A stretch of DNA of 64,000 nt, from contig CALVIH010000003.1 in the NCBI GenBank assembly GCA_944329445.1, positions 5,338 to 69,337 on the forward strand, read 5' to 3'. A program made the position numbers and the translations under genes. Positions 6,371 through 40,116 of this stretch are shown here, one piece after another (within the stretch, counting starts at the first letter, position 1; every line of letters starts with the position of its first letter). Origin of the DNA: an uncultured Bacilli bacterium (GTDB lineage: Bacteria; Bacillota_I; Bacilli_A; RF39; UBA660). The notes beneath the pieces are model-generated. The model had not been told where the DNA came from. It saw nothing but the letters and a program-made list of their open reading frames with translations, and ran no database searches.

Positions 6371-6374
6371 ATAA

Positions 6375-6552
6375 TTGACCTGAAGGTATCGTGAGCTGGC
6401 ACATTTAACCCGCTAAATATTATAAGGGAATCAGAATCAATGGTGGTGTTCATGCTTAACTATGATTAAGAAGTCTAAAGCCATTGTGGGATGCCCACCT
6501 GCGAGATGTGCAGGTTTATCTTGTCAGTAAAACGACCCTTTGGGTCTTTTTT
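6375..6552 (+). ncRNA. ssrS: 6S RNA (RNA polymerase-binding regulatory RNA)
   Basis: ORF-free transcript of about 175 nt with its own promoter and terminator (GACCC-TTT-GGGTC plus T6). The 5' end UUGAC..AAGGUA pairs with the 3' end UAUCUU-GUCAG to give a long closing helix. Contains CCACCUGCG as in B. subtilis 6S-1. Same aspS/yrvM(tcdA) position as B. subtilis bsrA. Confidence 0.65.
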
Positions 6553-8816: not shown

Positions 8817-10034
8817 TCAATTTTGATTCTTCTTTATTCTTTCTATGTTACTTAATGTTGTGGCCAATACTTTTTCATATTTATTGTTCTTGGGCTTATA
8901 ATAAACTCTATTTTTTAACTCATCTGGCAAGTATTGTTGAACCACGTAACTCCCAGGATAATCATGAGGATATTTATACCCGAATGCTTGAGCGTTAATA
9001 TGTGTTGGAACCTTTCCTATGTTACCATTTTCTACGTCTTTTAAAGCAAGGTCTAAAGCTACGTGCCCACTATTTGATTTTGGGGATAAACACAGATCAA
9101 TCACCATGTCTCCAAGAGGAATTCTAGCCTCTGGAAGCCCGATTCTTTCACATGCGTTTATGCATGCGTCAACTCTTACTCCCATGTTAGGATTTGCAAG
9201 TCCTATATCTTCGTATGCTATTACCGTCATTCTTCGGTAGATACTATCTAAATCACCGGAAGATATTAGTCTTGCTAAGTAGTGTAACGCAGCGTTTACA
9301 TCGGATCCTCTAATGGATTTTTGAAAAGCAGATAAAACGTCATAATGACCGGTTTCGTCTTCATCCATTGGGCTTGATGCTTTGCTATTTATGGTTTTTA
9401 TTATTTCTTCGTTTATCTTTTTATCGCTGGTGCTATAGTAAGCTACTTCAAGTAGGTTAAGAGCAAACCTAAAGTCTCCGTTTGATAATGACGCCATTAA
9501 ATTAAGTGATTTGTCATCTACTTTTACATCCTTTAAGAACTTTGTAGCTCTTTTTAATCCTTTTATAATTTCTTCTTTCTTTAAAGGAAGTAATTCGAAT
9601 ATTTGACATCTGCTTCTGATTGCTGGATTTATTTTGTGATAGGGATTAGAAGTAGTAAGACCTATTAGCGTAATAAGCCCGTTCTCTAACAAAGGAAGTA
9701 AAAGATCCTGTTTGTCTTTATTTAGTCTATGAATCTCATCAACGACCAAAACGATGTTTCCATAAATTTTAGTTTCTTCAAACACAATTTCAAAGTCTTT
9801 CTTATTGTTTACAACAGCGTTTAAAAAGCGGTGTTTTACATCTAGTTCACTTACTATTGCATTAGCAATGGAAGTCTTACCAACACCAGGTGGACCATAT
9901 AGAATCATTGAAAATAACTTCTTATTTTTTACTAAGTTTGTAAGTATTTTATCTTTTCCTATTAAATGTTCCTGGCCAATTACTTCTGATAGTTTTTTAG
10001 GCCTTAAAACGTTCGCTAATGGTTCGTTATTCAT
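8817..10034 (-). CDS. rarA: Replication-associated recombination protein A (AAA+ ATPase)
   Basis: GPPGVGKTS Walker A, VDEIHR Walker B, MgsA C-terminal domain (HYDVLSAFQKSIRGSDVNAALHYLARL). Confidence 0.92.
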   Translation of the reverse strand: MNNEPLANVLRPKKLSEVIGQEHLIGKDKILTNLVKNKKLFSMILYGPPGVGKTSIANAIVSELDVKHRFLNAVVNNKKDFEIVFEETKIYGNIVLVVDEIHRLNKDKQDLLLPLLENGLITLIGLTTSNPYHKINPAIRSRCQIFELLPLKKEEIIKGLKRATKFLKDVKVDDKSLNLMASLSNGDFRFALNLLEVAYYSTSDKKINEEIIKTINSKASSPMDEDETGHYDVLSAFQKSIRGSDVNAALHYLARLISSGDLDSIYRRMTVIAYEDIGLANPNMGVRVDACINACERIGLPEARIPLGDMVIDLCLSPKSNSGHVALDLALKDVENGNIGKVPTHINAQAFGYKYPHDYPGSYVVQQYLPDELKNRVYYKPKNNKYEKVLATTLSNIERIKKNQN

Positions 10035-10658: not shown

Positions 10659-11543
10659 ATGAAAAAAGAAATAGAAAATTACATTAATTTTGTGTACATT
10701 GAAAAAAAACTAAGTGATAATACAAAAAAAGCATATGAAAATGATTTAAATTACTTCTGTGATTATTTAAAAGACAAAGATATCAGCGCTGTTACAACAA
10801 AAGACATAAAAGGGTACATAAAGTATCTTAATGATGCTGGTGAAAAAGATAAGACGATTGCAAGAAAAATAGTAAGCATAAGAACCTTTTTCGATTATCT
10901 GATGCGCGAAAAAACAATTGATGTTAATCCTTGCGAGAAAATAGAGTCTCCTAAACTTAAAAAAACGCTTCCCAAGACTTTGAACGAAGAAGAAATAAAT
11001 AAGTTACTAGACATTAATCCTAAAACGCCGTTAGAGTGGCGAAATAAAGCTATGCTCGAGTTAATGTACGCAACTGGTCTTAGGGTATCTGAGTTAGTTG
11101 AATTGGAAGTAAATGACGTTAATTTAACGGACAACTACGTTAGAGTGTTTGGTAAAGGAAAAAAAGAAAGAATCGTGCCAATGGCTGATATAACTACTAA
11201 AGTAATGAAAACATACTTAAACGATCATAGGCAATCATTATTAAAGGGTTATTTAACTGATAAAGTTTTTATAAGTAGCTACGGAAAAGGAATGACAAGG
11301 CAAGGTTTTTTTAAAGTACTTAAGAAAATTGCAAAAGAAAAAGAAATAAAAAAAGATTTCTCACCACATACTTTAAGACACTCTTTTGCAACGCACTTAC
11401 TTGAGCATGGTGCTGATTTAAGAGCAATTGGTGAGATGTTAGGACACGAAAACATTAAGACGACACAAATATACACACATATATCTAATAATAAAATAAA
11501 AAAAGATTATGATGAATTTCATCCAAGAAATAAAATGATATAA
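10659..11543 (+). CDS. xerD: Site-specific tyrosine recombinase, XerD/XerC type
   Basis: Catalytic region HTLRHSFATHLLEHGADLRAIGEMLGHENIKTTQIYTH, ATGLRVSEL box, N-terminal SAM-like domain. Confidence 0.88.
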   Translation: MKKEIENYINFVYIEKKLSDNTKKAYENDLNYFCDYLKDKDISAVTTKDIKGYIKYLNDAGEKDKTIARKIVSIRTFFDYLMREKTIDVNPCEKIESPKLKKTLPKTLNEEEINKLLDINPKTPLEWRNKAMLELMYATGLRVSELVELEVNDVNLTDNYVRVFGKGKKERIVPMADITTKVMKTYLNDHRQSLLKGYLTDKVFISSYGKGMTRQGFFKVLKKIAKEKEIKKDFSPHTLRHSFATHLLEHGADLRAIGEMLGHENIKTTQIYTHISNNKIKKDYDEFHPRNKMI

Positions 11544-12978: not shown

Positions 12979-13008
12979 AAGTGTGTTATTATATATCTGG
13001 TGGAAAAT

Positions 13009-13860
13009 ATGTTGGATGATATTATTTGTAAATATAATAAATATGATATAGGTTTTTATGCCGAAGATAAATACGAAAATAAATTAGAATATAATTCAAA
13101 TAAATTGTTTGAAACAGCTAGTTGTTGTAAAGTATTTATTTTAATTGAATACTATAAGCAAGTATTCTTAAAGAAAATAAAATGGGATAATATTTTTGAA
13201 TATAATAAGGAAGATAACATAATTGGTAAAAATTCAGGTGTAATAAAAGATTTTACTTATGGTATCAAATTAAGAACCGAAGATTTAGCAACACTTATGA
13301 TTTTATATAGTGATAATATTGCAACAAATAAATTAATTGATTATCTTGGTTTAGAAAATATAAATGAAACTATTAAACAGTTAGGATTAAAAAACACTAA
13401 AATATTACATAAACTTGATTTATTAAAATATAAAAAGTTTGGCGTTACAACACCTAAAGAATATGCAAGTATTTTCAAAATGATATTGCAAGGTAAAGCT
13501 TATAACAAATGGGTTTCCAAAAAGGTATTGAACCTTTTAAAGAAGCAAACCCGAAGTGATATGATAAATAAAGGCCTTCCACAATATGATCTATTATTCA
13601 AAGGTAATAAAAATGAAAGTATAATAAACTATGTAGCTTCTAAGTCTGGGAGTGTAGTGTACATTGGAACTGATATGAAAAATTGTAGAAATGATGGTGG
13701 GGTTATTGCGACTAAGTATGGTAATTATATTATTTCTATTTTTGTTTCTGACTTAGATGATTTGCAATTAAATTATGATAATAATGGTATTAATTGTGGG
13801 GCAGAAATTTCGAAATATATTTTTAACAAATTTATTAGTAATAAAGGAAGTTTAAAATGA
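13009..13860 (+). CDS. Class A beta-lactamase-like serine hydrolase
   Basis: SxxK (SCCK), SDN (YSDN) and KSG motifs in class-A order. ATG at 13009 follows GGTGGA. No signal peptide is evident. Confidence 0.7.
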   Translation: MLDDIICKYNKYDIGFYAEDKYENKLEYNSNKLFETASCCKVFILIEYYKQVFLKKIKWDNIFEYNKEDNIIGKNSGVIKDFTYGIKLRTEDLATLMILYSDNIATNKLIDYLGLENINETIKQLGLKNTKILHKLDLLKYKKFGVTTPKEYASIFKMILQGKAYNKWVSKKVLNLLKKQTRSDMINKGLPQYDLLFKGNKNESIINYVASKSGSVVYIGTDMKNCRNDGGVIATKYGNYIISIFVSDLDDLQLNYDNNGINCGAEISKYIFNKFISNKGSLK

Positions 13861-14249
13861 TTAAATATAGTAATGAAATAAGATTTAATAAAAATAGTTT
13901 AGCTGAATTATTTTTGAGTGTTGGATGGAATTCTGGCAATCACCCAGATAAAATATATGATGCTATTTTGAATAGTACCTATTACTGCTTTGCATATGAT
14001 AATGAAAATCTAATTGGATTAGTAAGTGCAATATCGGATAAAAGTATTAATCTTTTTCTTACTTACTTATTGGTTAATCCAAATTATCAAAGAAGAGGCA
14101 TTGGAACGAGATTATTAAATAACATTACTAGCGCTGGTGATTTCAACAGAATTATATTAATATCAGAAAAAGGAAAGGAAAGCTTTTATATAAAAAATAA
14201 TTTTATACCTGATGGAGTTGGAATGTTTATAATAGATTGGAATAAATAA
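13857..14249 (+). CDS. GNAT family N-acetyltransferase
   Basis: Acetyl-CoA motif YQRRGIGTRLL. ATGA overlap with the upstream gene. Confidence 0.8.
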   Translation: MIKYSNEIRFNKNSLAELFLSVGWNSGNHPDKIYDAILNSTYYCFAYDNENLIGLVSAISDKSINLFLTYLLVNPNYQRRGIGTRLLNNITSAGDFNRIILISEKGKESFYIKNNFIPDGVGMFIIDWNK

Positions 14250-14296
14250 ACTAAACCTATTTTATAGCATAATAAAATACCAAAGGAAGTACTTAC

Positions 14297-15115
14297 ATGA
14301 ACTATGAATTATTAAATAAAATAATAGATTATTTAGAAGAAAATTTAACAAATGATATAGATACTAAAAAACTAGCTAAAAGTCTGGGACTAAATGACTT
14401 TATAATGCAAAGGGTATTTAGTATTGTAACTAACATTACTATAGCTGAATACGTAAGAAAAAGAAGGTTATCTCTTGCTTTTGAGGAAATAAAGCAAACT
14501 AGTAATAAAGTAATTGACGTTGCATTAAAATATGGATATGAATCAAGTGTTTCTTTTACAAGGAGTTTTAAAAAAGAATTTGGTATTACTCCAAGTAACA
14601 TAAGAAAAAATAAAGATAATAAATATAAAACCTTTCCAAGAATAAAGTTTGGAAGCAAGTTTAATAATAAAACAATAATTAATTATGTAATTAAAAATAT
14701 AAATAGTTTTACCATTTACGGAAAAAAGGTTAGTGCTAAAACCTTTGATGATTTACATTATAAAATAAGAGAACTTTATAAAGAAATAAAAACTGATGGC
14801 ACGTATGATCTTTTTGATAAAAATAAAAGGTATGCCTTAACTTATGATAATAATAATAATAACGTTCATACTTACTTAGTAGGTAGCATTTTAAAGAATA
14901 ATAATTTGGATAGTTATGACGTAAAAAAAGGAGAGTACGCGGTTTTTGAAGTTGGAAATAAAACGCAAAAAGACATTATAAAAACAATTGAATTCATAAA
15001 TGAGATTTGGTATTATTCTTCAAAGTTAGGAGTTAAAGATGATCCATATATAGAGTGTTATACAAAAGATAATTGCTATATATTTGTCCCGCTTGATAAA
15101 AGGAAATATAAATGA
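14297..15115 (+). CDS. AraC-family transcriptional regulator with GyrI-like effector-binding domain
   Basis: N-terminal double HTH (ALKYGYESSVSFTRSFKKEFGITPS) and a C-terminal domain of about 150 aa of GyrI/SbmC type. Confidence 0.8.
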   Translation: MNYELLNKIIDYLEENLTNDIDTKKLAKSLGLNDFIMQRVFSIVTNITIAEYVRKRRLSLAFEEIKQTSNKVIDVALKYGYESSVSFTRSFKKEFGITPSNIRKNKDNKYKTFPRIKFGSKFNNKTIINYVIKNINSFTIYGKKVSAKTFDDLHYKIRELYKEIKTDGTYDLFDKNKRYALTYDNNNNNVHTYLVGSILKNNNLDSYDVKKGEYAVFEVGNKTQKDIIKTIEFINEIWYYSSKLGVKDDPYIECYTKDNCYIFVPLDKRKYK

Positions 15116-15157
15116 TACAATTAATGTATAGAAAAATATTTTTTGTTGGGGGTATTT

Positions 15158-15895
15158 ATGAATAATAAATTTATAGTCATTAAAGATAAAGTTATTGTTT
15201 TTGATGAATATTCTAATACTAAAACATTAAATTACTGTGATAATATTCAAGAAATATTAAAACAAGAAAACAATATAGAAATTATACAAAAAGTAAAAGA
15301 TGATACGGAATGGGCAATAGAAAGTTTAAATAACAAGTGTTCACATAGTAAAGTATGGTGTTTTAACCCTCTTATTGTAGAAGCTATAGGATTGGGAGCT
15401 GGTTACATTCTTTTAAGAATAGCATTAGAAAATGAAATGATAGATACCGCATTCGGTCAAATGAGTATTGAATCTCTTACAATTCTTTATGGTGGAACAG
15501 TTTTGACACCGTTTTCAACAGGATTTTCGTTATCATTGCTATCTAATAGAAAAAAAGACGAAAGAAGATTAAATGCATTAAAAACAATGAAGATTTATGT
15601 TGATGATAAATTAGAAAAAGAAAAAGAAAAACTAAAAGAATTGAAAAAACATAATAGTAGTGGACATAAAGATTTTTCCTACACAGATGGAGAAAAAGTT
15701 ATTATAGAACCAGATTATGATTTTTATATGAATTTTGATCATCAAAGAAAACTATATTATAACACTGTATATAATGAAAAGAAATATAAAAAATATCTTC
15801 AAAAAGGCAATTTAGAAAACAAATTGCCTTACTATACTGATGATGATATAGATAAAGTTAAAAAAATATTAAAAAGAAACAAAACTGATATGTAA
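15158..15895 (+). CDS. Hypothetical membrane protein with coiled-coil C-terminus
   Basis: ATG at 15158 after GGGGG. Two hydrophobic segments and a K/E-rich segment. Confidence 0.55.
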   Translation: MNNKFIVIKDKVIVFDEYSNTKTLNYCDNIQEILKQENNIEIIQKVKDDTEWAIESLNNKCSHSKVWCFNPLIVEAIGLGAGYILLRIALENEMIDTAFGQMSIESLTILYGGTVLTPFSTGFSLSLLSNRKKDERRLNALKTMKIYVDDKLEKEKEKLKELKKHNSSGHKDFSYTDGEKVIIEPDYDFYMNFDHQRKLYYNTVYNEKKYKKYLQKGNLENKLPYYTDDDIDKVKKILKRNKTDM

Positions 15896-15946
15896 AATGT
15901 TTCTTTTTTTATTTTTATTAGTATTAAAATTATATCGGTGGTATAA

Positions 15947-17635
15947 GTGATTAGGCGATATTTTAAATTATGTAAAGAAACTAGGAAAGTACTTTATTTC
16001 TTTTTATTTGTTTTATTAATACTTGGCATACTAGATCTTATAATTCCAATATTTGCATCTAATATAATCGATTATTTAACCGATAAAAACTTAAATCTTT
16101 TTATTAAAACGTTAATTATTTTATTTGTATTATATTTTACGACAAATACTTTTTCTTACTTTGCATGCAGACTTTATTCTGTATACTTTAGAGAAAGCTT
16201 TAAAAACATACATAAGAAAATTATTAATAGAATATATGATTATAACGATGATGAATTAGTTAAATTACCAAAAGGTAAAATACTATCAACGGTTAACATT
16301 GACTCTATTAACATAGCGGAAATGGCCGATTATATGTTTAACGTTTTATATAATTTTATTTTGGTAATTTGTATGCTAATTGTATTTATTAAAACTAACG
16401 TTGTTTTAGGTGTTATTCTTTTTTTCGTGATAATAATATATGCATCCCTTGCGTTTTACTTAACAAAAAAATCAAGTTACTACATGAAAGGACAAAGGTT
16501 ATATCAAGATAAGCTTACTAATTTATTAAGTCAGACGCTAAACGGACTTAAAGAAGTTAAAACGCTTAACTTAAAACAAAGTTTAAACGTAAAATATGAT
16601 GGTATGAGAAGAGGGTGGGCAAAAAAATACATGTTAAAAAGAAGGTATTATATAGCATACTCTGTTATCTTAAAATACATAAGATACATATCAAAGATAC
16701 TGTTATACGTAATATCTGGTGTACTTATATTTAATGGTAAAATAACGATTGGAACCATAATATTATTAATTACTTACTTTGATAATATATTTACTTATTT
16801 AACCACGCTTGTAAGTGATGTTGGAACCGTTAGAAACTACAATATTTCATTAGAAAGAGTTTGGGAACTTTTAAATAATAATGTTAATAACGATACATAT
16901 GGATGTGTAGATAATGATTATATTAATGGTGTGGTTACTTTTAAAAATGTATCATTTGCTTATAAAGATATTGCTACAATAAAAAACGTTAGTTTTACTG
17001 CAATGCCTAATAGAATAACCGTGATAGTGGGTAAAACGGGTAGTGGAAAAACAACCATCCTTAACATTTTGTTAAGGCTTTATAAACCAGATAAGGGTAA
17101 CGTATTAATTGATGATATAAACATAAAAGAATATACAAAAGAAGTTTATTATAACAACGTATCGGTTGTTAATCAGGAGAGTTTTTTGTTTAACATGAGT
17201 ATTAAAGATAATTTATCAATGGTAGATAAAGACGTAAATAAACAAATAGAGGTTTGTAAAAGGGTAGGTATTCATGACTTGATAACTAAATTACCAAAGG
17301 GATATAACACCATTTTAAGCGAAAATGCGGGCAATTTATCTGGTGGTCAAAAAAGATTACTATCTTTAGCTAAAACCCTTTTAAAGGGTGCAGAAATACT
17401 CTTATTTGACGAGGTAACATCATCACTTGATCCAAAAACTACAAAAGAGATAATAAACGTGTTAAAGGATTTGAAAAAAGATCATACGGTAATTGTAATT
17501 ACACATAAAGAAGAAATGATGAAAATAGCAGATGAACTTATTATTTTAAATAAAGGGTGTGTGGTTGCAAAAGGTAAATATAATAATTTAAGTAATAATA
17601 AATATTTTAATGATTTAATTAATAAGGAGAAGTAA
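15947..17635 (+). CDS. ABC exporter, fused permease/ATPase
   Basis: Six-TM N-terminal domain. Walker A GKTGSGKTT, signature LSGGQKRLLSLA, Walker B ILLFDEVTS. Confidence 0.9.
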   Translation: MIRRYFKLCKETRKVLYFFLFVLLILGILDLIIPIFASNIIDYLTDKNLNLFIKTLIILFVLYFTTNTFSYFACRLYSVYFRESFKNIHKKIINRIYDYNDDELVKLPKGKILSTVNIDSINIAEMADYMFNVLYNFILVICMLIVFIKTNVVLGVILFFVIIIYASLAFYLTKKSSYYMKGQRLYQDKLTNLLSQTLNGLKEVKTLNLKQSLNVKYDGMRRGWAKKYMLKRRYYIAYSVILKYIRYISKILLYVISGVLIFNGKITIGTIILLITYFDNIFTYLTTLVSDVGTVRNYNISLERVWELLNNNVNNDTYGCVDNDYINGVVTFKNVSFAYKDIATIKNVSFTAMPNRITVIVGKTGSGKTTILNILLRLYKPDKGNVLIDDINIKEYTKEVYYNNVSVVNQESFLFNMSIKDNLSMVDKDVNKQIEVCKRVGIHDLITKLPKGYNTILSENAGNLSGGQKRLLSLAKTLLKGAEILLFDEVTSSLDPKTTKEIINVLKDLKKDHTVIVITHKEEMMKIADELIILNKGCVVAKGKYNNLSNNKYFNDLINKEK

Positions 17636-17637
17636 AA

Positions 17638-18075
17638 ATGAATAATTTTAGTGATATAGATTTTGAAAAGATATTTAAACCGATGAGCGAGGAAGAAATA
17701 AAAAAAGAAAAAATAATGGAAGAAGAAAGAAAAAAATATTATGACAAAGTAAAAGAAAACTTTCTAAATTTAGCAAGATCTCTTCCAGGAAGAGAATTTG
17801 AAACGCCAAGTGATCCATTAACTACTATAAAAGGGGAAATAAAAGATAACAAGATAGTTAACTTAAGAGCCTTAACTAGTAATAGGGCCTTAAAAGAAGG
17901 AATAAATATGATATTTAGTAATAATGATAATAATTATTTCGAATATAGCATAAATAACAATGTTACCTTAAAAAGCGATACGATTCCTGAGAACTTTAAA
18001 GATATTATGTCTTGGATATTAAAAGTAGATGGTATTAATTATGAAAACGATTATAACAATGGAAAAAGTAAGTAA
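17638..18075 (+). CDS. Hypothetical protein
   Basis: AAGGAG RBS, tightly coupled to the ABC gene. No known domain. Confidence 0.55.
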   Translation: MNNFSDIDFEKIFKPMSEEEIKKEKIMEEERKKYYDKVKENFLNLARSLPGREFETPSDPLTTIKGEIKDNKIVNLRALTSNRALKEGINMIFSNNDNNYFEYSINNNVTLKSDTIPENFKDIMSWILKVDGINYENDYNNGKSK

Positions 18076-18098
18076 TTAATTATGAATGGGTGGAATAT

Positions 18099-18662
18099 AT
18101 GGAAGTTTTAAATGCAATAAAAACAAGATGGAGTAATTACAAATACAAAAATAAAGAAATACCAAAAGAAGTAGTAGAGGACATATTAAATTGTGGTAGA
18201 CTTGCTCCTTCTGCTAAAAATAGACAACCATGGTACTTTGTTGTTACTTCTGGAAAGACAAAAACTAATATTATAAAAGTTATGAAAGATAAAGCTAAAA
18301 ACATTACCAATAAAAGTGAGATGAAAAGAATAGGGCATTCGTGTAGTCTTTTATCAACTGCTAAGACGATTGAAAAAGTTCCGATATTAGTTTTAGTATA
18401 TAGACCTGATGATATAGCATGGGCTAAAGGTGATAGATTATCAATTGGTGCGTGCGTAGAAAACATGTGTCTAAGAGCAACTGAACTAGGTATTGGTTCT
18501 TTATGGATATTAGATACCATATACGTAGAAAAAAAAATACAAGAAATTACTCATAATGAAAACATGGAATTAGTATGTGGTCTATTATTAGGATACCCGG
18601 ATCAAAAACCTAGAAAAAAGAATAGAAAAAAATTAAGGAATATAATAAAGTGGCAAGCATAA
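18099..18662 (+). CDS. Nitroreductase family protein
   Basis: RWSNYKY...LAPSAKNRQPWYFVV FMN-binding signature. ATG at 18099 follows GGGTGG. Confidence 0.85.
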   Translation: MEVLNAIKTRWSNYKYKNKEIPKEVVEDILNCGRLAPSAKNRQPWYFVVTSGKTKTNIIKVMKDKAKNITNKSEMKRIGHSCSLLSTAKTIEKVPILVLVYRPDDIAWAKGDRLSIGACVENMCLRATELGIGSLWILDTIYVEKKIQEITHNENMELVCGLLLGYPDQKPRKKNRKKLRNIIKWQA

Positions 18663-18779
18663 TTTATAAGTAAAGTTATATAATAGAGATTTTATGAGTT
18701 TAAAAACATTAAAACTAGATTGGCAAAACGATAATAATTTGTTAGTATAAATTGCATTAAATCACTTAAGGGGGATACC

Positions 18780-19190
18780 ATGAAAATATTGAAAAAAATT
18801 CAAAACAACTTTGAAAATAATAAAACTTATAAATACATTAAAGATTGTAATATTAAAAGCGTAAATAAAAGAAAGCTTGCATCTTTAGCTTTGGTTCCAA
18901 TGATTATTTGTGGTAGTATTATTGGAACAGCAACCAATGTTAAAGCTTCACAAATGGAAGATAATTACCATAATGAAAAAGAAACTAATAGTATAATATA
19001 TGTTGATGAAAATAAAAATGAATTAACATATCAAGAAAATAAAAATAATAAAATAAATAGTAATTTACTTTTTATTGATTCTGAAGAGGATAAAGAATTA
19101 TTTGATTATATTACGCTTGGCGTAAGTTGTACAGCGCTTGGGGTAGCAGTAGCTGGTCTTGTAGATAATCCAAGTAATAGAAGAAGATAA
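18780..19190 (+). CDS. Hypothetical membrane-anchored protein
   Basis: GGGGGA RBS; N-terminal and C-terminal TM segments. Confidence 0.5.
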   Translation: MKILKKIQNNFENNKTYKYIKDCNIKSVNKRKLASLALVPMIICGSIIGTATNVKASQMEDNYHNEKETNSIIYVDENKNELTYQENKNNKINSNLLFIDSEEDKELFDYITLGVSCTALGVAVAGLVDNPSNRRR

Positions 19191-19252
19191 ATAGCTAACG
19201 TTTTGGCTATTTTTATTATACAATTATATAATCTTCTAACATAATGCTTTAA

Positions 19253-19281
19253 TTGAATTAAAACAATATCTATGCTATAAT
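19253..19281 (+). promoter_or_regulatory. Sigma-A promoter (extended -10) of the HEPN/MNT pair
   Basis: TTGAAT, 17 nt spacer, TGcTATAAT. Confidence 0.5.
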
Positions 19282-19305
19282 TTAGTCAAGAAATAAGGAG
19301 GTATT

Positions 19306-19719
19306 ATGAAAAAATTTCAAGATAAATTAGAAAAATTAAATTTAGCTTATAATTCTTTAAAAGAAATGATAGAGTTTGGAAATACTGCTAACATATCATT
19401 AGAAAAGTTTGATGAGGCACTAAGAGATTCAATAATAAAAAAATTTGAGTATACTTTTGAACTTTCTTGGAAAACAATTAAAGCATATTTAGAAGAAGAA
19501 GGCTATGAAGAAATGTCTTCTCCTAGAAAAGTTTTGAAACAAGCTTTTGAATCGAATATAATAATTGATGAAGAAGTCTGGTCTAATATGTTAGAAGCGA
19601 GAAATTCAACAGCTCATACGTATGATGAAGAAAAAGCAATTTATTATGAAGACGTAATAAAAAACAAATATGTTAAAAAGTTAGATGAACTAATAAAAAA
19701 ACTAAACGAGGTAAAATAA
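19306..19719 (+). CDS. HEPN-domain protein (HI0074-type nucleotidyltransferase substrate-binding protein), putative RNase toxin
   Basis: KFEYTFELSWKTIKAYL core and an intact Rx4H motif (RNSTAH). Confidence 0.8.
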   Translation: MKKFQDKLEKLNLAYNSLKEMIEFGNTANISLEKFDEALRDSIIKKFEYTFELSWKTIKAYLEEEGYEEMSSPRKVLKQAFESNIIIDEEVWSNMLEARNSTAHTYDEEKAIYYEDVIKNKYVKKLDELIKKLNEVK

Positions 19720-19720
19720 A

Positions 19721-20023
19721 ATGTATGGTATTAGAGATAATTTATATAATGATATGATATCTGTTATAAAAAACTTCGGTGTTAAAAAAGCGATTCTTTT
19801 TGGAAGTAGGGCAAGAGGAGATTATAAAAATAACTCTGACATAGACTTGGCTTTTATTTTTAATAATAACGATAAAGATAATTTTATTAAAATGCAAGCT
19901 AAACTAGAAGAGTTAAACACTTTATATAAATTTGATGTTATTGATTTTAACGCTTTAAAAAATGATAAATTTAAAGAAGAAATATTAAAAGACGGAATAG
20001 TTATATTTGAAAAAAATAGCTAA
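19721..20023 (+). CDS. Minimal nucleotidyltransferase (MNT), putative antitoxin
   Basis: LFGSRARGDYKNNSDIDLA (GSx10-12DxD). Begins 1 nt after the HEPN stop codon. Confidence 0.85.
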   Translation: MYGIRDNLYNDMISVIKNFGVKKAILFGSRARGDYKNNSDIDLAFIFNNNDKDNFIKMQAKLEELNTLYKFDVIDFNALKNDKFKEEILKDGIVIFEKNS

Positions 20024-20042
20024 ACATTTTAGCTATTTTTAT
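20013..20042 (+). terminator. Rho-independent terminator
   Basis: Perfect 10-bp stem AATAGCTAAA/TTTAGCTATT enclosing the MNT stop codon, followed by a T run. Confidence 0.7.
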
Positions 20043-20066
20043 TGTATAATTGTTATGGTGATATAA

Positions 20067-20612
20067 ATGAAGTTAAAGAATTTTTTTGGACATTTAAAAA
20101 CTGTAAATAAACATAGATTTTTAGTATTCAAGCTATCTATTAAAGCTGGAATTCCTATAAGAGGCTTATTGCACGATTTATCTAAATATTCACCTGCAGA
20201 GTTTTTTGAAAGTGTTAAATACTATAATGGTAAAATAAGCCCTATTAAAATAAGTAAACAAGAAAATGGTTATTCAAAAGCATGGCTCCATCACAAAGGA
20301 AGAAATAAACATCATTTTGAATACTGGTATGATTTTAATACACCAGATAAAACACCAATGATTCCGTATAAATACTTAGTAGAATTGATATGTGATAATA
20401 TAGCTGCTTCAATGATATATAAAGGTAAAGATTGGAACCCAAAATTGCAACTAGAATATTTTAAAAATAGAAAAGATTTGGAATATATAAATAGTGATGT
20501 TAAGAAAATATTAATAGAAGTATATTCAGAAATTATTAAAAAAGGTATAGATAAAGTAATTAATAAAAAGAACTTAATAAGAATATATAATAAATATGCA
20601 AGTAAAAAATAA
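20067..20612 (+). CDS. DUF5662-family protein
   Basis: HDLSKYSPAEF...WLHHKGRNKHHFEYW is characteristic of this family. Confidence 0.7.
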   Translation: MKLKNFFGHLKTVNKHRFLVFKLSIKAGIPIRGLLHDLSKYSPAEFFESVKYYNGKISPIKISKQENGYSKAWLHHKGRNKHHFEYWYDFNTPDKTPMIPYKYLVELICDNIAASMIYKGKDWNPKLQLEYFKNRKDLEYINSDVKKILIEVYSEIIKKGIDKVINKKNLIRIYNKYASKK

Positions 20613-20633
20613 TAGGTTATAAAGCCTATTATT

Positions 20634-21572
20634 TTATTTTGTTTTAGGTATAGCAAATAAAATAGTTTCAGTAGGGTAGATACAGTTTCCATAACACCTT
20701 AAATAATAATTATAATTATTATTTGTTTGATTTATTAGTTTAGGTATTTTCCACAAATGATCATTATTATGATAAACTGAAATTAATAATTTTGGACTAT
20801 CATTTTTTATATGATTTAAACTTCCTAATAAAGCATTTTCTTCAGAACCTTCTATATCCATTTTTATCATAGTTATTTTATCTTTAATATCTATATCCAA
20901 TGTAGTTGTATTAAGTAAAATATCACCTTTTTTGCTAACTTTATTAGCAGATGCTGATATATTATTTACGTCTAGATATAAATTATCTATTTTATTACTT
21001 ACGGCTTTTTTATTATATATAATATTATTATATTTAGATAGATTATCTTTTAATTTAGAAAAAGTATCATCTGTTATATCATAACAATATATTTTTTTAT
21101 ACGAGTCTTCTCCATAAGTATATATATAATCTATTATACTATCACCTGTATAAGCTCCTAAATCTACCACTATTTCATCTTTACAGTATGGAATTATATC
21201 TAAATCAAAATAATGCTTAAAAGGTGTATCTAAGCATGTTTTAACCGTACTAAAATCATAACAATACCAATTATTTAAAATACCATATAATAATTTCTTA
21301 GATTTATAATCTTTAAGATTTTTATATAACCAAACAAAATCATCTATATGTTCTTTTAACGTACTAGCTTTTAGATACAATGCATCATAATTATTGTTTT
21401 CTATATCAATCTTTCCCCAATAGTTAAATTTATTAAAGAAACTTTCTATAGATTTTCTAGTATCTTGATGTACTTTAGAAAAACTATTTTTTATATTTAA
21501 ATAAATCTCATCTGTTGACATTAAATTAATTTTTTTAACTAATTCATAAAAACCTATATCTATATTATTCAT
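20634..21572 (-). CDS. FkbM-family SAM-dependent methyltransferase
   Basis: VVDLGAYTGDS and MIKMDIEGSE motifs. GGAGGA RBS. Extremely AT-rich. Confidence 0.8.
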   Translation of the reverse strand: MNNIDIGFYELVKKINLMSTDEIYLNIKNSFSKVHQDTRKSIESFFNKFNYWGKIDIENNNYDALYLKASTLKEHIDDFVWLYKNLKDYKSKKLLYGILNNWYCYDFSTVKTCLDTPFKHYFDLDIIPYCKDEIVVDLGAYTGDSIIDYIYTYGEDSYKKIYCYDITDDTFSKLKDNLSKYNNIIYNKKAVSNKIDNLYLDVNNISASANKVSKKGDILLNTTTLDIDIKDKITMIKMDIEGSEENALLGSLNHIKNDSPKLLISVYHNNDHLWKIPKLINQTNNNYNYYLRCYGNCIYPTETILFAIPKTK

Positions 21573-21721
21573 ATTAACATCCTCCTATATAAAATATATA
21601 TTAATATTAGTAAAAAATGATTTATCTTTTTTATAAAATAATTTTTTCTTCAATTATTTACAAATGAAAAATATATGATATAATAATAGCCAATTAAAAT
21701 TTTATTTATATGGAGGAAATT

Positions 21722-22549
21722 ATGAATGATAATGTAAGAGATGAATTAGTAAAGAGTATTGAAAATTTATATTCAAGTGTAGGAGAAAATGGTTATTTTA
21801 TATGTAAATTATATGAAGAAAAAATATTGAAAATTAATGATCTAGACTTAAGTTATTGGTTTGCTAAAAATATATATGGAGCTGATATAAAAGCTCATGG
21901 TATGGTTGTATTAGATAGTAAAGATCCAGAATGGAATTATATTTTTGCTAGAGATGTAAAAGGAGCTGATATAAAAGCTCATGGTATGGTTGTATTAGAT
22001 AGTAAAGATCCAGAATGGAACTTTAAGTTTGCTTGCCTCGTAAAAGATGCTGATATAAAAGCTCATGCACAAGTAGTATTAGATAGTAAAGATCCAGAAT
22101 GGAACTTTAAGTTTGCTAGAGATATAAAAGATGCTGATATAAAAGCTCATGCACAAGTAGTATTAGATAGTAAAAATCCAGAATGGAACTGTAATTTTGC
22201 TGAATATGTAAAAGATGCTGATATAAAAGCTCATGCACAAGTAGTATTAGATAGTAAAGATCCAGAATGGAACTGTAATTTTGCTTGCCTAGTAAAAGAT
22301 GCTGATATAAAAGTTCATGCACAAGTAGTATTAGATAGTAAAGATCTAAAATGGAACTGTAATTTTGCTGAATATGTAAAAGATGCTGATATTAATGCCC
22401 ACGAGCAAATTATAATAGAATCTAACGATATAAAATTATATTATAACTTTCTTAGAGAGGTAAAACATATGGATTTAAATGGTATATACTGTAATTATAT
22501 AGGTGAACAAGCTGATAAAGTTGATTCTATATTAAAAAAATTAAAATAA
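21722..22549 (+). CDS. Repeat protein made of seven 28-aa tandem repeats
   Basis: ATG at 21722 after GGAGGA. Repeats have the form (G/D)ADIKAH(A/G)(Q/M)VVLDSKDPEWN(F/C/Y)xFAxxVK. Confidence 0.7.
   Translation: MNDNVRDELVKSIENLYSSVGENGYFICKLYEEKILKINDLDLSYWFAKNIYGADIKAHGMVVLDSKDPEWNYIFARDVKGADIKAHGMVVLDSKDPEWNFKFACLVKDADIKAHAQVVLDSKDPEWNFKFARDIKDADIKAHAQVVLDSKNPEWNCNFAEYVKDADIKAHAQVVLDSKDPEWNCNFACLVKDADIKVHAQVVLDSKDLKWNCNFAEYVKDADINAHEQIIIESNDIKLYYNFLREVKHMDLNGIYCNYIGEQADKVDSILKKLK
21878..22465 (+). repeat. 84-bp tandem repeat, 7 copies (6 near-identical, last degenerate), in frame within the CDS
   Basis: Period 84 nt starting at 21878. Exact stretches of about 60 nt are shared between units 3 to 6. 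Confidence 0.9.
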
Positions 22550-22663
22550 TGTTTTAAAAATGACTTCTAATAGTCTTTTTTTTATTAAAAATATTAATAA
22601 TTTTTAATTAATATATAATTGTTTTTTTAATATTTTATAATATAATTAATAAAGGTGACTGAA

Positions 22664-23095
22664 ATGAAAAATAAGTTAGAAAATTTTATGAAAAATAGAT
22701 ATGGTATAGATCATTTATATATGTTTTTATTTACTTTATATTTTATATTAATAATTATAAACTTATTTATTAATTCCATTGTTATTACTATATTAGAATT
22801 AATAATTGTAATAATAATGTTTTATAGAATGTTTTCTAAAAATAAATATAAAAGAAGTAGGGAAGAGATGATTTATTTAAGATTAAAAGATAATATTATA
22901 AATTTATTTAAAAATTTTAAAGTCAAGGATAAAGACCATGTTTATAGAAAATGTAAAAAATGCAAAACAAAAATAAGACTACCACTACCTAGTACAATAG
23001 GTTTTAAATATATAACTTGCCCTAAATGTAAAAATAAGTTTAAGACTTTGGTTTTAAAAAAACAAAAAATAGAAATAATAAGAAAAAAGAATTAA
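22664..23095 (+). CDS. Small membrane protein with C-terminal CxxC...CxxC zinc ribbon
   Basis: ATG at 22664 after AAAGGTGA. Two TM helices, then CKKCKTK...CPKCKNK. Confidence 0.6.
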   Translation: MKNKLENFMKNRYGIDHLYMFLFTLYFILIIINLFINSIVITILELIIVIIMFYRMFSKNKYKRSREEMIYLRLKDNIINLFKNFKVKDKDHVYRKCKKCKTKIRLPLPSTIGFKYITCPKCKNKFKTLVLKKQKIEIIRKKN

Positions 23096-23196
23096 GTCCC
23101 CTATTATAATTAATGATAAAAAGTAGGGGGATATAAGATTTATTTTAACGATACATATTTAATCATTTATAAAAAACATTATGTATTAATTATTAA

Positions 23197-23230
23197 AACA
23201 CTTAGAGTTATTCTAACGTGTTTTTTATTT
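23197..23230 (+). terminator. Candidate rho-independent terminator
   Basis: AACACTTAG/CTAA(C)GTGTT stem (one bulge) followed by T6. Confidence 0.4.
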
Positions 23231-23500
23231 AAAAGACGCATAGTTATTCATCTCGATTCATTCTACGATGTTATATTTTTGTATATACTTACCTTATTTT
23301 TTATTATTATATAATGTTAGGGTAGAAAAAAGGTAATATATGTATTTTTAACATAACATAATACACAGATAAGTATTTATATTTAATTATTAAAAAATTA
23401 CTTAGAATGACTAAATAGCTTATAGAATAAATATTTATTATTTAAATATATTTACGTAAAAATGATAATAAAAAATGGTTATCTACCAGTTAGAGTAGTA

Positions 23501-23534
23501 TAAAAAAATAGTCATACATTATAGTAAGACTATT
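23501..23534 (-). terminator. Rho-independent terminator of the HTH regulator gene
   Basis: Minus-strand AATAGTC-N14-GACTATT followed by TTTTT. Confidence 0.55.
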
Positions 23535-23551
23535 TTAAATAAAAAAGCAAA

Positions 23552-23579
23552 TGTTAACATAATATGTATTATATGAACT
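23552..23579. other. dif: Candidate dif site (XerCD chromosome-dimer resolution site)
   Basis: The minus-strand reading AGTTCATATAA-TACATA-TTATGTTAACA matches 22 of 28 positions of B. subtilis dif (ACTTCCTAGAA-TATATA-TTATGTAAACT, from memory). It lies exactly at the gene-orientation switch. Confidence 0.6.
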
Positions 23580-23596
23580 AAGATATAGTAGTTAAG

Positions 23597-24364
23597 TTAA
23601 ACGTCACGGGATTGTATTTCGGCAATCTTAGCAAGTACTTCTGATGCGTTAGATTGGTTAATCTCAGTGTATCCAAGTTCGTGTAATGCTTGTATTTTAG
23701 CAGAATTAATCTCTTGGGTTCTACTTAATTTTTCTTCGTTTTTGTGTTCTATTTCTGCAACAAACTTCTTGTGTTGTTCTGCTAACTTTGTTTTGGAAGC
23801 CCCTCCGTTACGGTATAACACCATTGCGGAATGCATAATACTTTCGAATACAAATTGCTCATCTTCGTTAAAAGCATATTCTTCCGGATTAACAAAACCT
23901 AATAATTTGACAATATAACCCATCATATACTTTAATTCTTTTACGTTTTCTAACCCTTGAATAAAATGAAGCAAGTATTTATAAGTTACGTAAGAGTCAT
24001 TAGAATTCTCAATAAAACGCTCTTTAATCATAAATATAATATCATTTAGAAGTTCTTGCTCTCTTGGTTTTAATTCCTTAAATTCAATGCTTTCAGAGTG
24101 TGTTACTGTTATGTTTGAAACTTCACCATTTAAAACCATGTCCACCTTGTTAATGAATTCTGCATCAACTTTTATATTATCTATTTCAGAAGCTTCTTTA
24201 ATATCTAACAAATTAAATAATTTCATCTTTTTATCCTTAGGCCATCTAGAAACATCATTCATTTCTAAATAATTGTAGATCATTTGCCTTGAAACTCCTA
24301 GATATTTTGCTAACTTTACCTTTGAAATTCCAAGTTCTTGTAAAATTTCGTTAAGTTTATCCAT
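23597..24364 (-). CDS. Helix-turn-helix (XRE-like) transcriptional regulator
   Basis: N-terminal HTH LGISKVKLAKYLGVSRQMIYNYLE; the C-terminal 180 aa are unassigned. Confidence 0.7.
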   Translation of the reverse strand: MDKLNEILQELGISKVKLAKYLGVSRQMIYNYLEMNDVSRWPKDKKMKLFNLLDIKEASEIDNIKVDAEFINKVDMVLNGEVSNITVTHSESIEFKELKPREQELLNDIIFMIKERFIENSNDSYVTYKYLLHFIQGLENVKELKYMMGYIVKLLGFVNPEEYAFNEDEQFVFESIMHSAMVLYRNGGASKTKLAEQHKKFVAEIEHKNEEKLSRTQEINSAKIQALHELGYTEINQSNASEVLAKIAEIQSRDV

Positions 24365-24498: not shown

Positions 24499-25134
24499 CT
24501 AAATGATGAACGTAAATAATTTTAGTAAAAGTGGCGTTAAATACGCATCTAGCACGCAACATATAACCATTAAAACAACGGATAACATAAATGATAACAT
24601 GTATTTTCCTAAAAAACTCTTAAAGTTTAAATTATCCTTTTTCAATAATGCTTTTAAAAATTTAATTGATGCATGAACCGCGAAAAAAGAGATGAAAACG
24701 TAGATTAAGATGTTTAATATCATACAAGGGAAAACGTATAAAAAACACCCTACTACTCCCTTTAATTGGTATTTTAATATGATTGTCGCAAGGGTAACTC
24801 CTAAAGTAAATCCTTTAAAAAACATTATAAAAATTACCGCTATTATTCCAATCATAGATATTCCTAAAACAAAAATAGTTATTATTTGAATAATATTATT
24901 TATCGTATTAGACGCGAAAACGGAAGTTCCAAATACTTCTTTAGAAAGCTTCTTTATTGCGTCAAAAAACGTTGTAACTTGATTGGTTAATAGGGCCTTG
25001 TCATCGCTGTTTATAAAATTTATAAAAAGTGATCCAAAAACTAAACCAACTATAAAAGTAATGATTATAAACAATAGTAAAACTTTTTGCTTCTTCATGG
25101 TTTCAGTTAAGTAGTTTATTATTTTCTTCATCAT
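24499..25134 (-). CDS. spoIIM: Stage II sporulation protein M
   Basis: Multi-pass membrane protein of about 210 aa. FFKGFTLGVTLA and DAYLTPLLLKLF parallel B. subtilis SpoIIM (FLKGVVVGFTVG, EAYLSPVLMEKL). Confidence 0.75.
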   Translation of the reverse strand: MMKKIINYLTETMKKQKVLLLFIIITFIVGLVFGSLFINFINSDDKALLTNQVTTFFDAIKKLSKEVFGTSVFASNTINNIIQIITIFVLGISMIGIIAVIFIMFFKGFTLGVTLATIILKYQLKGVVGCFLYVFPCMILNILIYVFISFFAVHASIKFLKALLKKDNLNFKSFLGKYMLSFMLSVVLMVICCVLDAYLTPLLLKLFTFII

Positions 25135-26408: not shown

Positions 26409-26431
26409 GAAAAAAAGGAACCAAGGTTCCT
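26409..26431 (-). terminator. Rho-independent terminator after spoIVB
   Basis: AGGAACC/GGTTCCT hairpin overlapping the stop codon, then T6-7 on the minus strand. Confidence 0.6.
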
Positions 26432-27419
26432 AATTTTCCGCTTCTTCTAACATAGACGTTATAAGTATTCCGTATCCTTTAGTAGGATTATTAACAACCA
26501 CGTTTGTTACCGCACCAATTATTTTATCACCTTGTATAATTGGTGATCCACTCATTCCTTGAACAATACCGCCAGTTTTTTTAATTAATTCTTCATCTGT
26601 TACCTTAAATAAAATATTCTTGTTACTATTCTCATCATTATTAACTTTTAATATGTTTATGTTATATTCTTTTTTTTCACTTGCTTCTAGTACGGTGATA
26701 ATCTTAGCATCACCTGTTTTTATATCTTTATATTCTGCTACTTCGTATAACTTTTCTTGGTTTATTCCTTTTGTATAATTTCCAAATATACCTGATATGG
26801 TATTTTCTTTTATGGTACCATAGATATCATTAGCATTTGTGTCTGCACTTTTAGCACCAGGTTCACCCCTGGTTGACTTTTCTATTCCGGTTACTTCTGA
26901 ATTATATATTTTACCGTCTTTTACGTCTAGCATCGTACCTGAGGTAGATTCTATAACTTCGTGTCCTAACGCACCATATAATTTAGTATTAGGATCAATG
27001 AACGTAAGTGTCCCGATTCCAGATACCATATCTTTTACGTATAGACCCGTTTTAATTACACCATTATCATTTATTAAATTTAAAGTCGTGGTCTCTTCTT
27101 TATTATTTCTTAGATAAACCAGTTTTAAACTATTTCCATCGCTATTTTTAATTGATGTAATAAAATCGTCAATCGTTTTAACGTCCGAGTCATTTGCTTT
27201 AATAATAGTATCTCCTTTTGTTAGGTTTGCGTCATGTCCCGGATACGTTTCACCTACTTTATAAAAACCAGCTATTATTATTCCATCATTATTAATTTGG
27301 AGTCCTATGTTTTCTCCACCTGCAACTATATATTTAGAATAAGCAAAAACACTTTGTGGCATAATAAATGTAGCAACTATAAAAATTGCTATAAAACTTT
27401 TAAATTTTTTAAAAAACAT
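26430..27419 (-). CDS. spoIVB: SpoIVB peptidase (S55) with PDZ domain
   Basis: GTLTFIDPNTKLYGALGH and GMSGSPIIQGDKIIGAVTNV catalytic regions, N-terminal signal anchor, PDZ (GDTIIKANDSDV). Confidence 0.88.
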   Translation of the reverse strand: MFFKKFKSFIAIFIVATFIMPQSVFAYSKYIVAGGENIGLQINNDGIIIAGFYKVGETYPGHDANLTKGDTIIKANDSDVKTIDDFITSIKNSDGNSLKLVYLRNNKEETTTLNLINDNGVIKTGLYVKDMVSGIGTLTFIDPNTKLYGALGHEVIESTSGTMLDVKDGKIYNSEVTGIEKSTRGEPGAKSADTNANDIYGTIKENTISGIFGNYTKGINQEKLYEVAEYKDIKTGDAKIITVLEASEKKEYNINILKVNNDENSNKNILFKVTDEELIKKTGGIVQGMSGSPIIQGDKIIGAVTNVVVNNPTKGYGILITSMLEEAEN

Positions 27420-36757: not shown

Positions 36758-37633
36758 ATGAGTAACAAAAAAGATTTACTTATTATTTATTTTTTTATTG
36801 TAATCGAAGTAATGATATTAATAAATTCGCACGAGGTAATAGATAGTGTTAAATCATCATCCGTAATGTTTATAACAAAAGTTTTTCCCTCATTATTTCC
36901 AACCATGGTAGTAGGAAACATTCTAACTAAGCAAGGATTTTATAAAGTAATACCAAATTTTATTAAAAAAATATTTCATAAACTATTTAACTTTAATGAC
37001 GTAATGACTGGTGTGTTTATAACTGCTATGATTACAGGAAGTCCAAGCAACGCAATTTATATAGATGAATTGCTAGAAAAAAAATTATTAAATGAAAAAG
37101 AGGCAGAACTACTTTTATGTACCACTCACTTTGTTAATCCTCTTTTTGTCATTGGTGGTGTTGGTATATACGTTTTTAACAGCGTGAAAATTGGCGTGCT
37201 TTTGCTTCTTACGTTATGGATAAGTAACTTTATAAAAGTATTTATTAATAGAAAAAAATTTATAAGCAGTTACACGCATAAGAAAGAATATAAGCACTAC
37301 AACATCATAAACGATGTAACCGATTCAATTAAAAGTTCGGTTAACTCATCACTTTTAATTTTTGGAATAATAATAATGTTTAGTTTATTAGTATCACTTA
37401 TAGGATTTGTGTTTAATCTTAGCAACACAGTGCAAACAGTAGTCGGAGGACTACTTGAGATGACCGGTGGAATTATGAAATTATCAAACCTACCATTAAA
37501 TTTCATTGTAAAGTTTATTTTATCATATTACTTTTTAAATTTTGGGGGTCTATGTATTCAAATGCAAACGTTTGGTATGATAAAAAACAAAAAAATAAGA
37601 TATTTAAAATACCTTATTTTCAGATTAATTTAG
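36758..37633 (+). CDS. Integral membrane protein, YlbJ-like (nucleoside-recognition/Gate domain)
   Basis: Multi-pass protein; N-terminal FITKVFPSLFPTMVVGNIL resembles the YlbJ family. Confidence 0.45.
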   Translation: MSNKKDLLIIYFFIVIEVMILINSHEVIDSVKSSSVMFITKVFPSLFPTMVVGNILTKQGFYKVIPNFIKKIFHKLFNFNDVMTGVFITAMITGSPSNAIYIDELLEKKLLNEKEAELLLCTTHFVNPLFVIGGVGIYVFNSVKIGVLLLLTLWISNFIKVFINRKKFISSYTHKKEYKHYNIINDVTDSIKSSVNSSLLIFGIIIMFSLLVSLIGFVFNLSNTVQTVVGGLLEMTGGIMKLSNLPLNFIVKFILSYYFLNFGGLCIQMQTFGMIKNKKIRYLKYLIFRLI

Positions 37634-38790: not shown

Positions 38791-40116
38791 ATGTTAAAAC
38801 AAATAGATTTTACTAAATTACCAATAACAGAAATAGTAAATGAAATTATATTTACCGCTGCTCAAGCAGGGGCAAGTGACATACACTTTGATCCCGCTGA
38901 AAAAGGTATTAAAGTTAGATTTAGGATCGACGGTGTTTTAATTGACTACACAATAGTTCCCGAAAGCATTAGAAAAAACTTGATCGCTAGGCTTAAAATA
39001 ATTTCTGGTATGGATATTACCGAATCAAGATTACCACAAGATGGTGCAATCAAAATGACGATAAAAAACATTAATCTTGACATGCGTGTTTCTTCCCTAC
39101 CTACTAATGAAGGTGAAAAGATTGTTATTCGTATTCTTGACTACACTGCTTCTTTAAAAGGCCTTGATAGTCTTGGATTTTCTCCGGTTAACTTAAAAAA
39201 GGTAAAAGAATTAATAAAAGAACCAAATGGAATCATACTTGTTACCGGAGCAACTGGAACTGGTAAATCAACCACCGTTTATTCTATTTTACAAACGCTT
39301 AATACTCCGGAGGTTAATTTAGTAACGGTTGAAGACCCAGTTGAGATGAACATTGAGAACATAAATCAGATACAGGTTAATAGTGAAATTGGACTTACCT
39401 TCGCAGAAGTACTACGTTCTATTTTGCGTCAGGACCCAGACATTATAATGATTGGAGAAATACGTGATGATGAAACTGCAAAAATAGCTGTTAGGGCCTC
39501 TATTACTGGACACTTGGTACTATCTACGATACATACGAATAACGCTTTAAATACAATTGAACGTTTAACTGACATGGACGTTGAAACTTACCTTTTAGCT
39601 TCTTCTTTAAACGGAATCATTTCTCAAAAGCTAGCTAGAAAAATATGTCCACATTGCATGAAAAAACGTCCTGCAATTGATTATGAAAAAAAGTTAATTA
39701 AAGCCAACTTAGGAGTTGATATAACAGAACTTGCATACGCTGAAGGATGCTCAGAGTGTGTTGGTGGTTACAAAGGAAGAATTGCGATTCATGAAGTACT
39801 TGTTATCTCACAAGATATAAGGGATGCTATTGCAAACGGTATGCCTAAAGAGGAGCTAAGAAAACTAGTTTATCAAGGTGATACCAAGACTCTTTTACAA
39901 GATGGTTTAACCAAAGTATTGGAAAACATTACAACGATTGAAGAAATATTAAGATTAGTTGAGCTTGATGATGAATCTGTTAAAATAGTAACTGCTAAAG
40001 ACAACGTAAACCAACAGCAACCACTAACAAGTAATCAATCAGAAACGATTAATAATAGCGCTCAAAGTGTTCCTATCCCACCGGTTAATAATGACGTGGA
40101 GATGCTTGACGTATAA
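38791..40116 (+). CDS. pilB: Type IV pilus/competence assembly ATPase (GspE/PilB/ComGA family)
   Basis: Walker A GATGTGKST, Asp box, His box GHLVLSTIHTNNA, tetracysteine CPHC...CSEC. Confidence 0.9.
   Translation: MLKQIDFTKLPITEIVNEIIFTAAQAGASDIHFDPAEKGIKVRFRIDGVLIDYTIVPESIRKNLIARLKIISGMDITESRLPQDGAIKMTIKNINLDMRVSSLPTNEGEKIVIRILDYTASLKGLDSLGFSPVNLKKVKELIKEPNGIILVTGATGTGKSTTVYSILQTLNTPEVNLVTVEDPVEMNIENINQIQVNSEIGLTFAEVLRSILRQDPDIIMIGEIRDDETAKIAVRASITGHLVLSTIHTNNALNTIERLTDMDVETYLLASSLNGIISQKLARKICPHCMKKRPAIDYEKKLIKANLGVDITELAYAEGCSECVGGYKGRIAIHEVLVISQDIRDAIANGMPKEELRKLVYQGDTKTLLQDGLTKVLENITTIEEILRLVELDDESVKIVTAKDNVNQQQPLTSNQSETINNSAQSVPIPPVNNDVEMLDV

Follow-up and report, generated by a model that had tools for sequence, protein, structure and literature searches.

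Two long runs of genes face each other across a short intergenic gap (positions 23096 to 23596) in a 64-kb stretch of DNA from an uncultured low-G+C Bacillota bacterium, the whole of which is referred to here as the window. The question raised by this locus is whether the two runs meet where the replication forks meet, as proposed by the original prediction from gene orientation, or whether they merely happen to converge at some other kind of boundary. The data presented below support the former: the gap very probably belongs to the replication-terminus and dimer-resolution region of the chromosome, the GC skew flip and the convergent genes being joined by a dif site and a xerD gene, neither of which figured in the original prediction. 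The architecture is of the expected, standard kind, and nothing already known is changed by it.

Converging gene blocks and an AT-rich gap

In a greedy set of non-overlapping open reading frames (ORFs), 25 of the 27 genes left of the gap (53 to 23095) are on the + strand, while 38 of the 43 genes right of it (23597 to 63945) are on the - strand. Previous counts of 26 of 28 and 37 of 43 therefore stand to within about one gene. Expressed as coding DNA, the left block has 19.3 kb on + and 2.2 kb on -, and the right block 33.7 kb on - and 3.8 kb on +. The two exceptions in the left block encode a rarA-like AAA ATPase (8817 to 10034) and a FkbM-family methyltransferase (20634 to 21572). Only one large-scale orientation switch was found in the 64 kb, at the gap, and in the terminus interpretation the left block, with its positive GC skew, would be the end of one replichore and the right block, with negative skew, the end of the other. 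The gene names on which the original prediction relied were also confirmed (LemA, hisS, aspS, rarA, FkbM, spoIIM, spoIVB, mutS, sigA [rpoD], dnaG, proS, valS, lon, tig, and IreB), the aspS of the window being of the non-discriminating type.

The gap had been described as ORF-free and very AT-rich. Its G+C content is 19.0%, compared to 22 to 34% in 2-kb windows across the 64 kb, and it contains no ORF of at least 60 amino acids (aa), with three of 20 to 32 aa overlapping it. Rfam and tRNA scans gave no match inside the gap, and a promoter/terminator scan and a repeat search of the gap returned nothing beyond chance. Directly 3′ of the Zn-ribbon gene, a hairpin read from the sequence, GTCCCCTA...TAGGGGGA (23097 to 23131, + strand), is probably the terminator of the left block; its arms (CCCCT...AGGGG) are kept in relatives.

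The original prediction hinged on a sign change of the GC skew at this place, and the skew does change from + to - within the window. In 2-kb windows it ranges from +0.06 to +0.29 up to 24 kb and from -0.02 to -0.29 thereafter, the sign change falling in the 22- to 25-kb windows. A skew that passes from + to - implies that the leading strands converge, hence a terminus and not an origin, as had been proposed. DnaA boxes, consistent with this, were not enriched in the window (16 found versus 20 expected).

A dif site in the gap and a nearby xerD gene

Inside the gap lies a 28-bp XerC/D-type chromosome dimer resolution site, dif, at 23552 to 23579 (- strand), with the sequence AGTTCATATAA-TACATA-TTATGTTAACA. 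It consists of an XerC-type arm (AGTTCATATAA) and an XerD-type arm (TTATGTTAACA), each of 11 bp and related by partial dyad symmetry, on either side of the 6-bp spacer TACATA, i.e., the architecture of the dif family, and like other members of the family it is located at the GC skew shift point, where the replichores join. The same 28 bp are the window's best match to both the B. subtilis and the E. coli dif. Hamming distance to such distant sites is not significant in AT-rich DNA, with 25 of 200 simulations giving an equally good match, and the comparison was therefore replaced by a position weight matrix built from 16 distinct Firmicutes dif sequences, taken from those that Kono et al. (2011; PMC3025954, supplement 2) list near skew shift points. 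The site scored 24.6 bits with this matrix, while the next independent site in the window scored 3.2 and the best scores of 300 Markov-simulated windows had a maximum of 18.8 (mean, 7.1; standard deviation, 3.2). One dif was found in the 64-kb window and one in each strain locus. It is only the position-weighted profile and the comparative data (see below) that are decisive for the identification of dif. According to Kono et al., dif lies near, not necessarily at, the point of fork fusion (PMC3025954); in the window, the maximum of the cumulative G-C count (23,718) is ~140 bp from dif.

The dif sites of B. subtilis and other Firmicutes, the substrates of CodV (XerC) and RipX (XerD), are likewise 28 bp long, with a 6-bp spacer flanked by 11-bp arms that are partly palindromic, and the core of the window's site, ATAA-N6-TTATGT(A/T)AAC, matches published Firmicutes sites exactly. 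Its arms have 4 mismatches to the dif of B. anthracis and S. aureus, and the spacer, TACATA, is the same as in L. delbrueckii. The site differs from the Firmicutes sites in its outer arm bases (AGTTCA... and ...AACA) and in the predicted location of dif within the 3′ untranslated region of a conserved helix-turn-helix (HTH) gene. The likeness to E. coli extends to the XerD arm (TTATGTTAAAT), the first 9 bases of which are identical to the window's TTATGTTAA. The latter nonamer occurs three times in the window, including a lone XerD half-site at 23348 to 23356 (- strand), 200 bp from dif on the same strand, that is not paired with a matching XerC arm. The sole dif polymorphism seen was in strain L002 (10786 to 10813), where a T-to-C change in the XerC-type arm (AGTTCACATAA...) makes the site more palindromic.

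The gene for the tyrosine recombinase of dif, xerD, is at 10659 to 11543 (+ strand), 12 kb from the site. Its product scored 359.7 bits against the NCBIfam XerD equivalog TIGR02225 (cutoff, 329.6) and has Pfam matches to Phage_integrase and Phage_int_SAM_1. A XerC gene was not found within the 64-kb window.

Downstream of dif there is a terminator-like hairpin with a U-run (23498 to 23536, - strand; predicted RNA fold, -15.4 kcal/mol; z = -3.2), left unlabeled by a simple terminator scan because its stem is G+C poor. A hairpin occupies the same place 3′ of dif in 13 relatives, with different stem sequences. The presence of hairpin and T-run beyond dif places dif after the HTH gene's stop codon but ahead of the predicted terminator of that gene.

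Conservation of the junction across strains and species

The species of the window is represented by metagenome contigs of up to 200 kb, and the same junction was found in six of them. In a sister species (~90% protein identity) it was present in eight contigs, in the interior of contigs of 110 to 418 kb, with xerD 5 to 8 kb from dif. The convergent junction keeps the same flanking genes in all of these, i.e., the six strain contigs and the eight sister-species contigs.

A wider scan for the dif arms, TTCATATAA-N6-TTATGTTAAC, in species-representative genomes (one genome per GTDB species) identified 107 contig stretches, with one match per contig. They are mostly from uncultured gut Bacilli, Candidatus Aphodocola, and "Clostridium sp." CAG:594 and CAG:451, and also include metagenome-assembled genomes labeled as Erysipelotrichaceae or Tenericutes; the nearest named relatives of the window are Candidatus Aphodocola and "Clostridium sp. 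CAG:594." Among the 58 testable stretches, those with at least 1.5 kb on both sides of the arms, 45 had convergent ORF majorities and 40 had a + to - skew, so that the layout recurs in dozens of related species. In 32 related loci, a xerD homologue was encoded inside the 8-kb locus around dif. Many of the stretches carry a full 28-mer (ACTTCATATAATATATATTATGTTAACT) that is two bases off the S. aureus dif, which links the window's site to an experimentally defined family. Complete genomes with the same dif arms are OW818670.1 and NZ_CP168077.1, for which the 8-kb loci were read, and contigs of >1 Mb with 90%-identical homologues exist.

The degree of conservation within the site was determined on 13 aligned loci, twelve of them from genomes of other species and one from L003, a divergent strain contig. 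Bases 3 to 27 of the 28-mer (GTTCATATAATACATATTATGTTAAC, spacer included) were identical in 13 of 13, and the rest of the gap (~450 bp) was unalignable among them, dif thus standing out as an island of identity.

These data weigh heavily against a local inversion or rearrangement boundary away from the true terminus, in which an inverted segment would carry its genes and its skew along and so mimic a terminus. Such a boundary would likewise produce a switch of both orientation and skew within 64 kb, but we consider it very unlikely given the presence of dif, the proximity of xerD, and the stability of the junction across species: the junction holds the window's only dif-type site, the same junction and flanking genes are found in related species at 70 to 97% protein identity, and the HTH-to-dif arrangement reaches down to 45% identity. 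An inversion would moreover leave valS, lon, tig, sigA, and dnaG, all essential and highly expressed, head-on to replication over at least 40 kb. A further argument of the original prediction, based on the B. subtilis map, fared less well. On that map hisS-aspS shares one replichore and strand with sigA-dnaG, valS, and lon-tig, and that it faces them here indicates rearrangement between replichores, but not a terminus as such.

Strain mosaic and accessory DNA at the dif edge

Alignment of the window to two strain contigs, L003 and L006, gives 96 to 100% identity over the interval that runs from the HTH gene to the far end of dif, and identity falls to ~50% at the XerD arm's outer edge (23551/23552; 9609 to 9640 in L003 and 7716 to 7750 in L006). 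Beyond the drop, the Zn-ribbon gene is 82% identical between window and strain, and the L003 copy is closer to that of L068, from another species (89%). The drop in identity and the closeness of the L003 Zn-ribbon gene to L068 together show that the left flank was exchanged between lineages with a breakpoint at dif. That the drop records a swap of one chromosome arm's end by Xer is conceivable, although we regard it as rather unlikely.

The DNA on the divergent side is an accessory stretch of low G+C content (21 to 26%; 13000 to 23095) that adjoins dif and varies in gene content between strains and species. Between 13 and 23 kb it encodes a nucleotidyltransferase/substrate-binding pair (19306 to 20023), a DUF5662 protein, the FkbM protein, an ABC exporter, and an AraC/Cass2 regulator. 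Assemblies break in this stretch beside dif. It also contains an 84-bp tandem repeat (6.1 copies, 89% matches; 21881 to 22392, + strand) inside an ORF at 21710 to 22549, each unit encoding a 28-aa repeat of a 279-aa protein of unknown function; strain L002 is missing ~270 bp of the array. The variability of the stretch fits the usual plasticity of terminus-proximal DNA.

A pattern of this kind could also arise if the 28-mer served for attachment or resolution of a mobile element or secondary replicon (as at IMEX junctions, on plasmids, or in pdif-type sites) and were not the chromosomal dif. The near identity of the strains on one side (98 to 100%) and their divergence on the other (~50% identity), the low-G+C accessory sequence on the divergent side, and the lone XerD half-site 200 bp away would all be in keeping with this. 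Yet the window and the six strain loci have no second dif-like site within 4 to 10 kb, the site is flanked by housekeeping genes and occupies the same place in 78 species, and IMEX activity at a genuine dif would be equally compatible with a terminus, making this alternative highly improbable. As to an IMEX integrated at dif itself, no dif-like site of at least 6 bits other than dif was detected in the window or in L001 to L006, and no phage or IMEX genes were recognized; with only the lone XerD half-site and no second dif-like site to bound an element, an IMEX is not supported. The window shares with CTX-phi, TLC-phi, and the gonococcal genetic island that strain-variable DNA starts exactly at the dif edge, and differs from them in having neither a second dif-like junction site nor recognizable phage/IMEX genes.

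The skew follows the side of the gap, not the gene strand

The coding strand of low-G+C Firmicutes is itself purine-rich, and replication-associated and coding-strand skew were therefore separated by codon position. Skew at codon position 1 is tied to the coding strand (about +0.56/-0.55) and accounts for the bulk of the raw skew. At codon position 3 (GC3), the skew of the + strand on the left was +0.074 in + genes and +0.070 in - genes, and on the right -0.072 in - genes and -0.081 in + genes; intergenic skew was +0.17 left of the gap and -0.16 right of it. Having the same sign whatever the strand of the gene, GC3 and intergenic skew follow the side of the gap and not gene strand, which is how a replication-associated bias should behave. 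The cumulative maximum computed with only codon position 3 and intergenic bases is at 23,744. That the gap is an ordinary convergent operon boundary, at which a purine-rich coding strand simply switches sides, is exceedingly improbable, since, although most raw skew does come from codon position 1, GC3 skew keeps one sign on either side of the gap, whether genes are co- or counter-oriented, and reverses across it, as does intergenic skew, excluding a pure coding-strand artifact, and since the blocks run for 23 to 40 kb or more and dif is present.

Strand-polar motifs had also been expected to change strand at this position. GAAGAAG, the FtsK-orienting motif of Lactococcus, has a +:- ratio of 13:0 left of the gap and 2:24 right of it; the flip is there, but it is confounded with the coding strand. 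As GAAGAAG doubles as a Glu-Glu codon pair and replication is co-directional with 90% of the genes, it does not constitute independent evidence. The B. subtilis SRS (GAGAAGGG) and E. coli KOPS (GGGNAGGG) motifs were absent from the window. The locus has in common with the E. coli terminus (dif, XerCD, FtsK, KOPS) the convergent replichores and the dif at their junction, and a G-rich polar motif, GAAGAAG in place of KOPS, that switches strand at dif, a feature inseparable from coding bias at the scale of 64 kb. No fork trap of the Tus/Ter or RTP kind was recognized among the features identified in the window.

Proposed role of the locus

Taking the region to be the chromosomal terminus, two forks would arrive from left and right, each moving co-directionally with most genes along a G-rich leading strand, and the region where they meet would be marked by the single 28-bp dif. 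After replication, chromosome dimers would be resolved through recombination between the sister dif sites, carried out by XerD and probably a XerC partner whose gene lies outside the window. On the model of B. subtilis and E. coli, this recombination may be activated by an FtsK/SpoIIIE-type translocase reading strand-polar motifs. We infer fork fusion at this locus, action of Xer on dif, and a position opposite oriC.

For annotation, these results would fix the terminus and dif in an uncultured gut Bacillota lineage, and the 28-bp dif could serve as a landmark to orient and scaffold metagenome-assembled genomes of the clade. The points that might repay further work are the clade-wide linkage between the HTH gene and dif, described next, and the strain mosaic boundary at dif.

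An HTH gene kept beside dif

The last gene before dif (23597 to 24364, - strand) encodes a 255-aa XRE-type HTH protein with an N-terminal HTH (HTH_3, 23.2 bits) and ends 17 nucleotides (nt) from the site. Of the 107 loci, 78 have a homologue beside dif, with protein identities from 97% down to 45%, and in 78 of 78 its 3′ end is towards dif. The distance from stop codon to dif is at most 45 nt in 26 loci and 190 to 700 nt in 44, and dif occurs in either orientation relative to the gene (XerC arm proximal in 51, XerD arm in 27). With 7 sequence clusters for the upstream neighbor of the HTH gene and 14 for the DNA beyond dif, the HTH-dif adjacency is the most stable of the local adjacencies. General synteny is also substantial in the clade of the HTH-dif loci.

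Among 1.8 billion representatives, the HTH family accounts for 296 clusters (50% identity), making it a small one. An AlphaFold2 model of the protein is all-helical (pLDDT, 80), and its structural matches are restricted to the HTH domain, all PDB neighbors having E values of >0.3; a fold search of the model returned no structural relatives for the C-terminal helical domain. An ArgR-like C terminus (E = 0.38 to 1aoy and a weak NCBIfam ArgR match) was considered and dropped; neither family profile nor fold search confirmed it.

All 60 distinct promoter sequences of the HTH genes contain a perfect TTGACA box, and 52 of the 60 contain repeated TGTAAA motifs, a pattern suggestive of autoregulation. 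The operator-like TGTAAA motifs were not enriched around dif, and a search for repeated candidate binding sites flanking dif found none, nor any notable repeats in or around the gap.

Other systems offer two precedents for a gene kept at such a site. In xerS-difSL of streptococci and xerH-difH of Helicobacter, a gene is likewise kept immediately adjacent to dif in many species. In those cases it is the recombinase, whereas here it is an XRE-type HTH gene, with the recombinase gene 2 to 12 kb away on the other arm, and in contrast to the 31-bp difSL the window's site is of the 28-bp XerC/D type. The genes rtp, by TerI in B. subtilis, and tus, by TerB in E. coli, similarly encode DNA-binding proteins at the terminus beside a cis-acting site, but the HTH protein resembles neither RTP nor Tus in sequence or fold, the XRE HTH alone being recognized. 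By analogy with these systems, the protein could be a lineage-specific accessory or regulatory factor of Xer, or a terminus-binding protein. The protein may be functionally tied to dif or the terminus, but we think this rather unlikely compared with its being a syntenic bystander.

Other features of the window

A 6S RNA was identified at 6374 to 6550 (+ strand; Rfam RF00013, 78.3 bits) and a T-box leader at 52833 to 53043 (- strand; RF00230, 145.8 bits), the latter upstream of a 177-aa ORF and valS. The sporulation genes spoIIM (24499 to 25134, - strand), spoIVB (26430 to 27419, - strand), and ylbJ (36758 to 37633, + strand) are present although the nearest named relatives (Candidatus Aphodocola) are placed in "Bacilli incertae sedis." The right arm also encodes a type IV pilus/competence-type ATPase of the GspE/PilB family (38791 to 40116, + strand), one of its few counter-oriented genes, and a platform protein of the PilC/GspF family (41496 to 43319, - strand).
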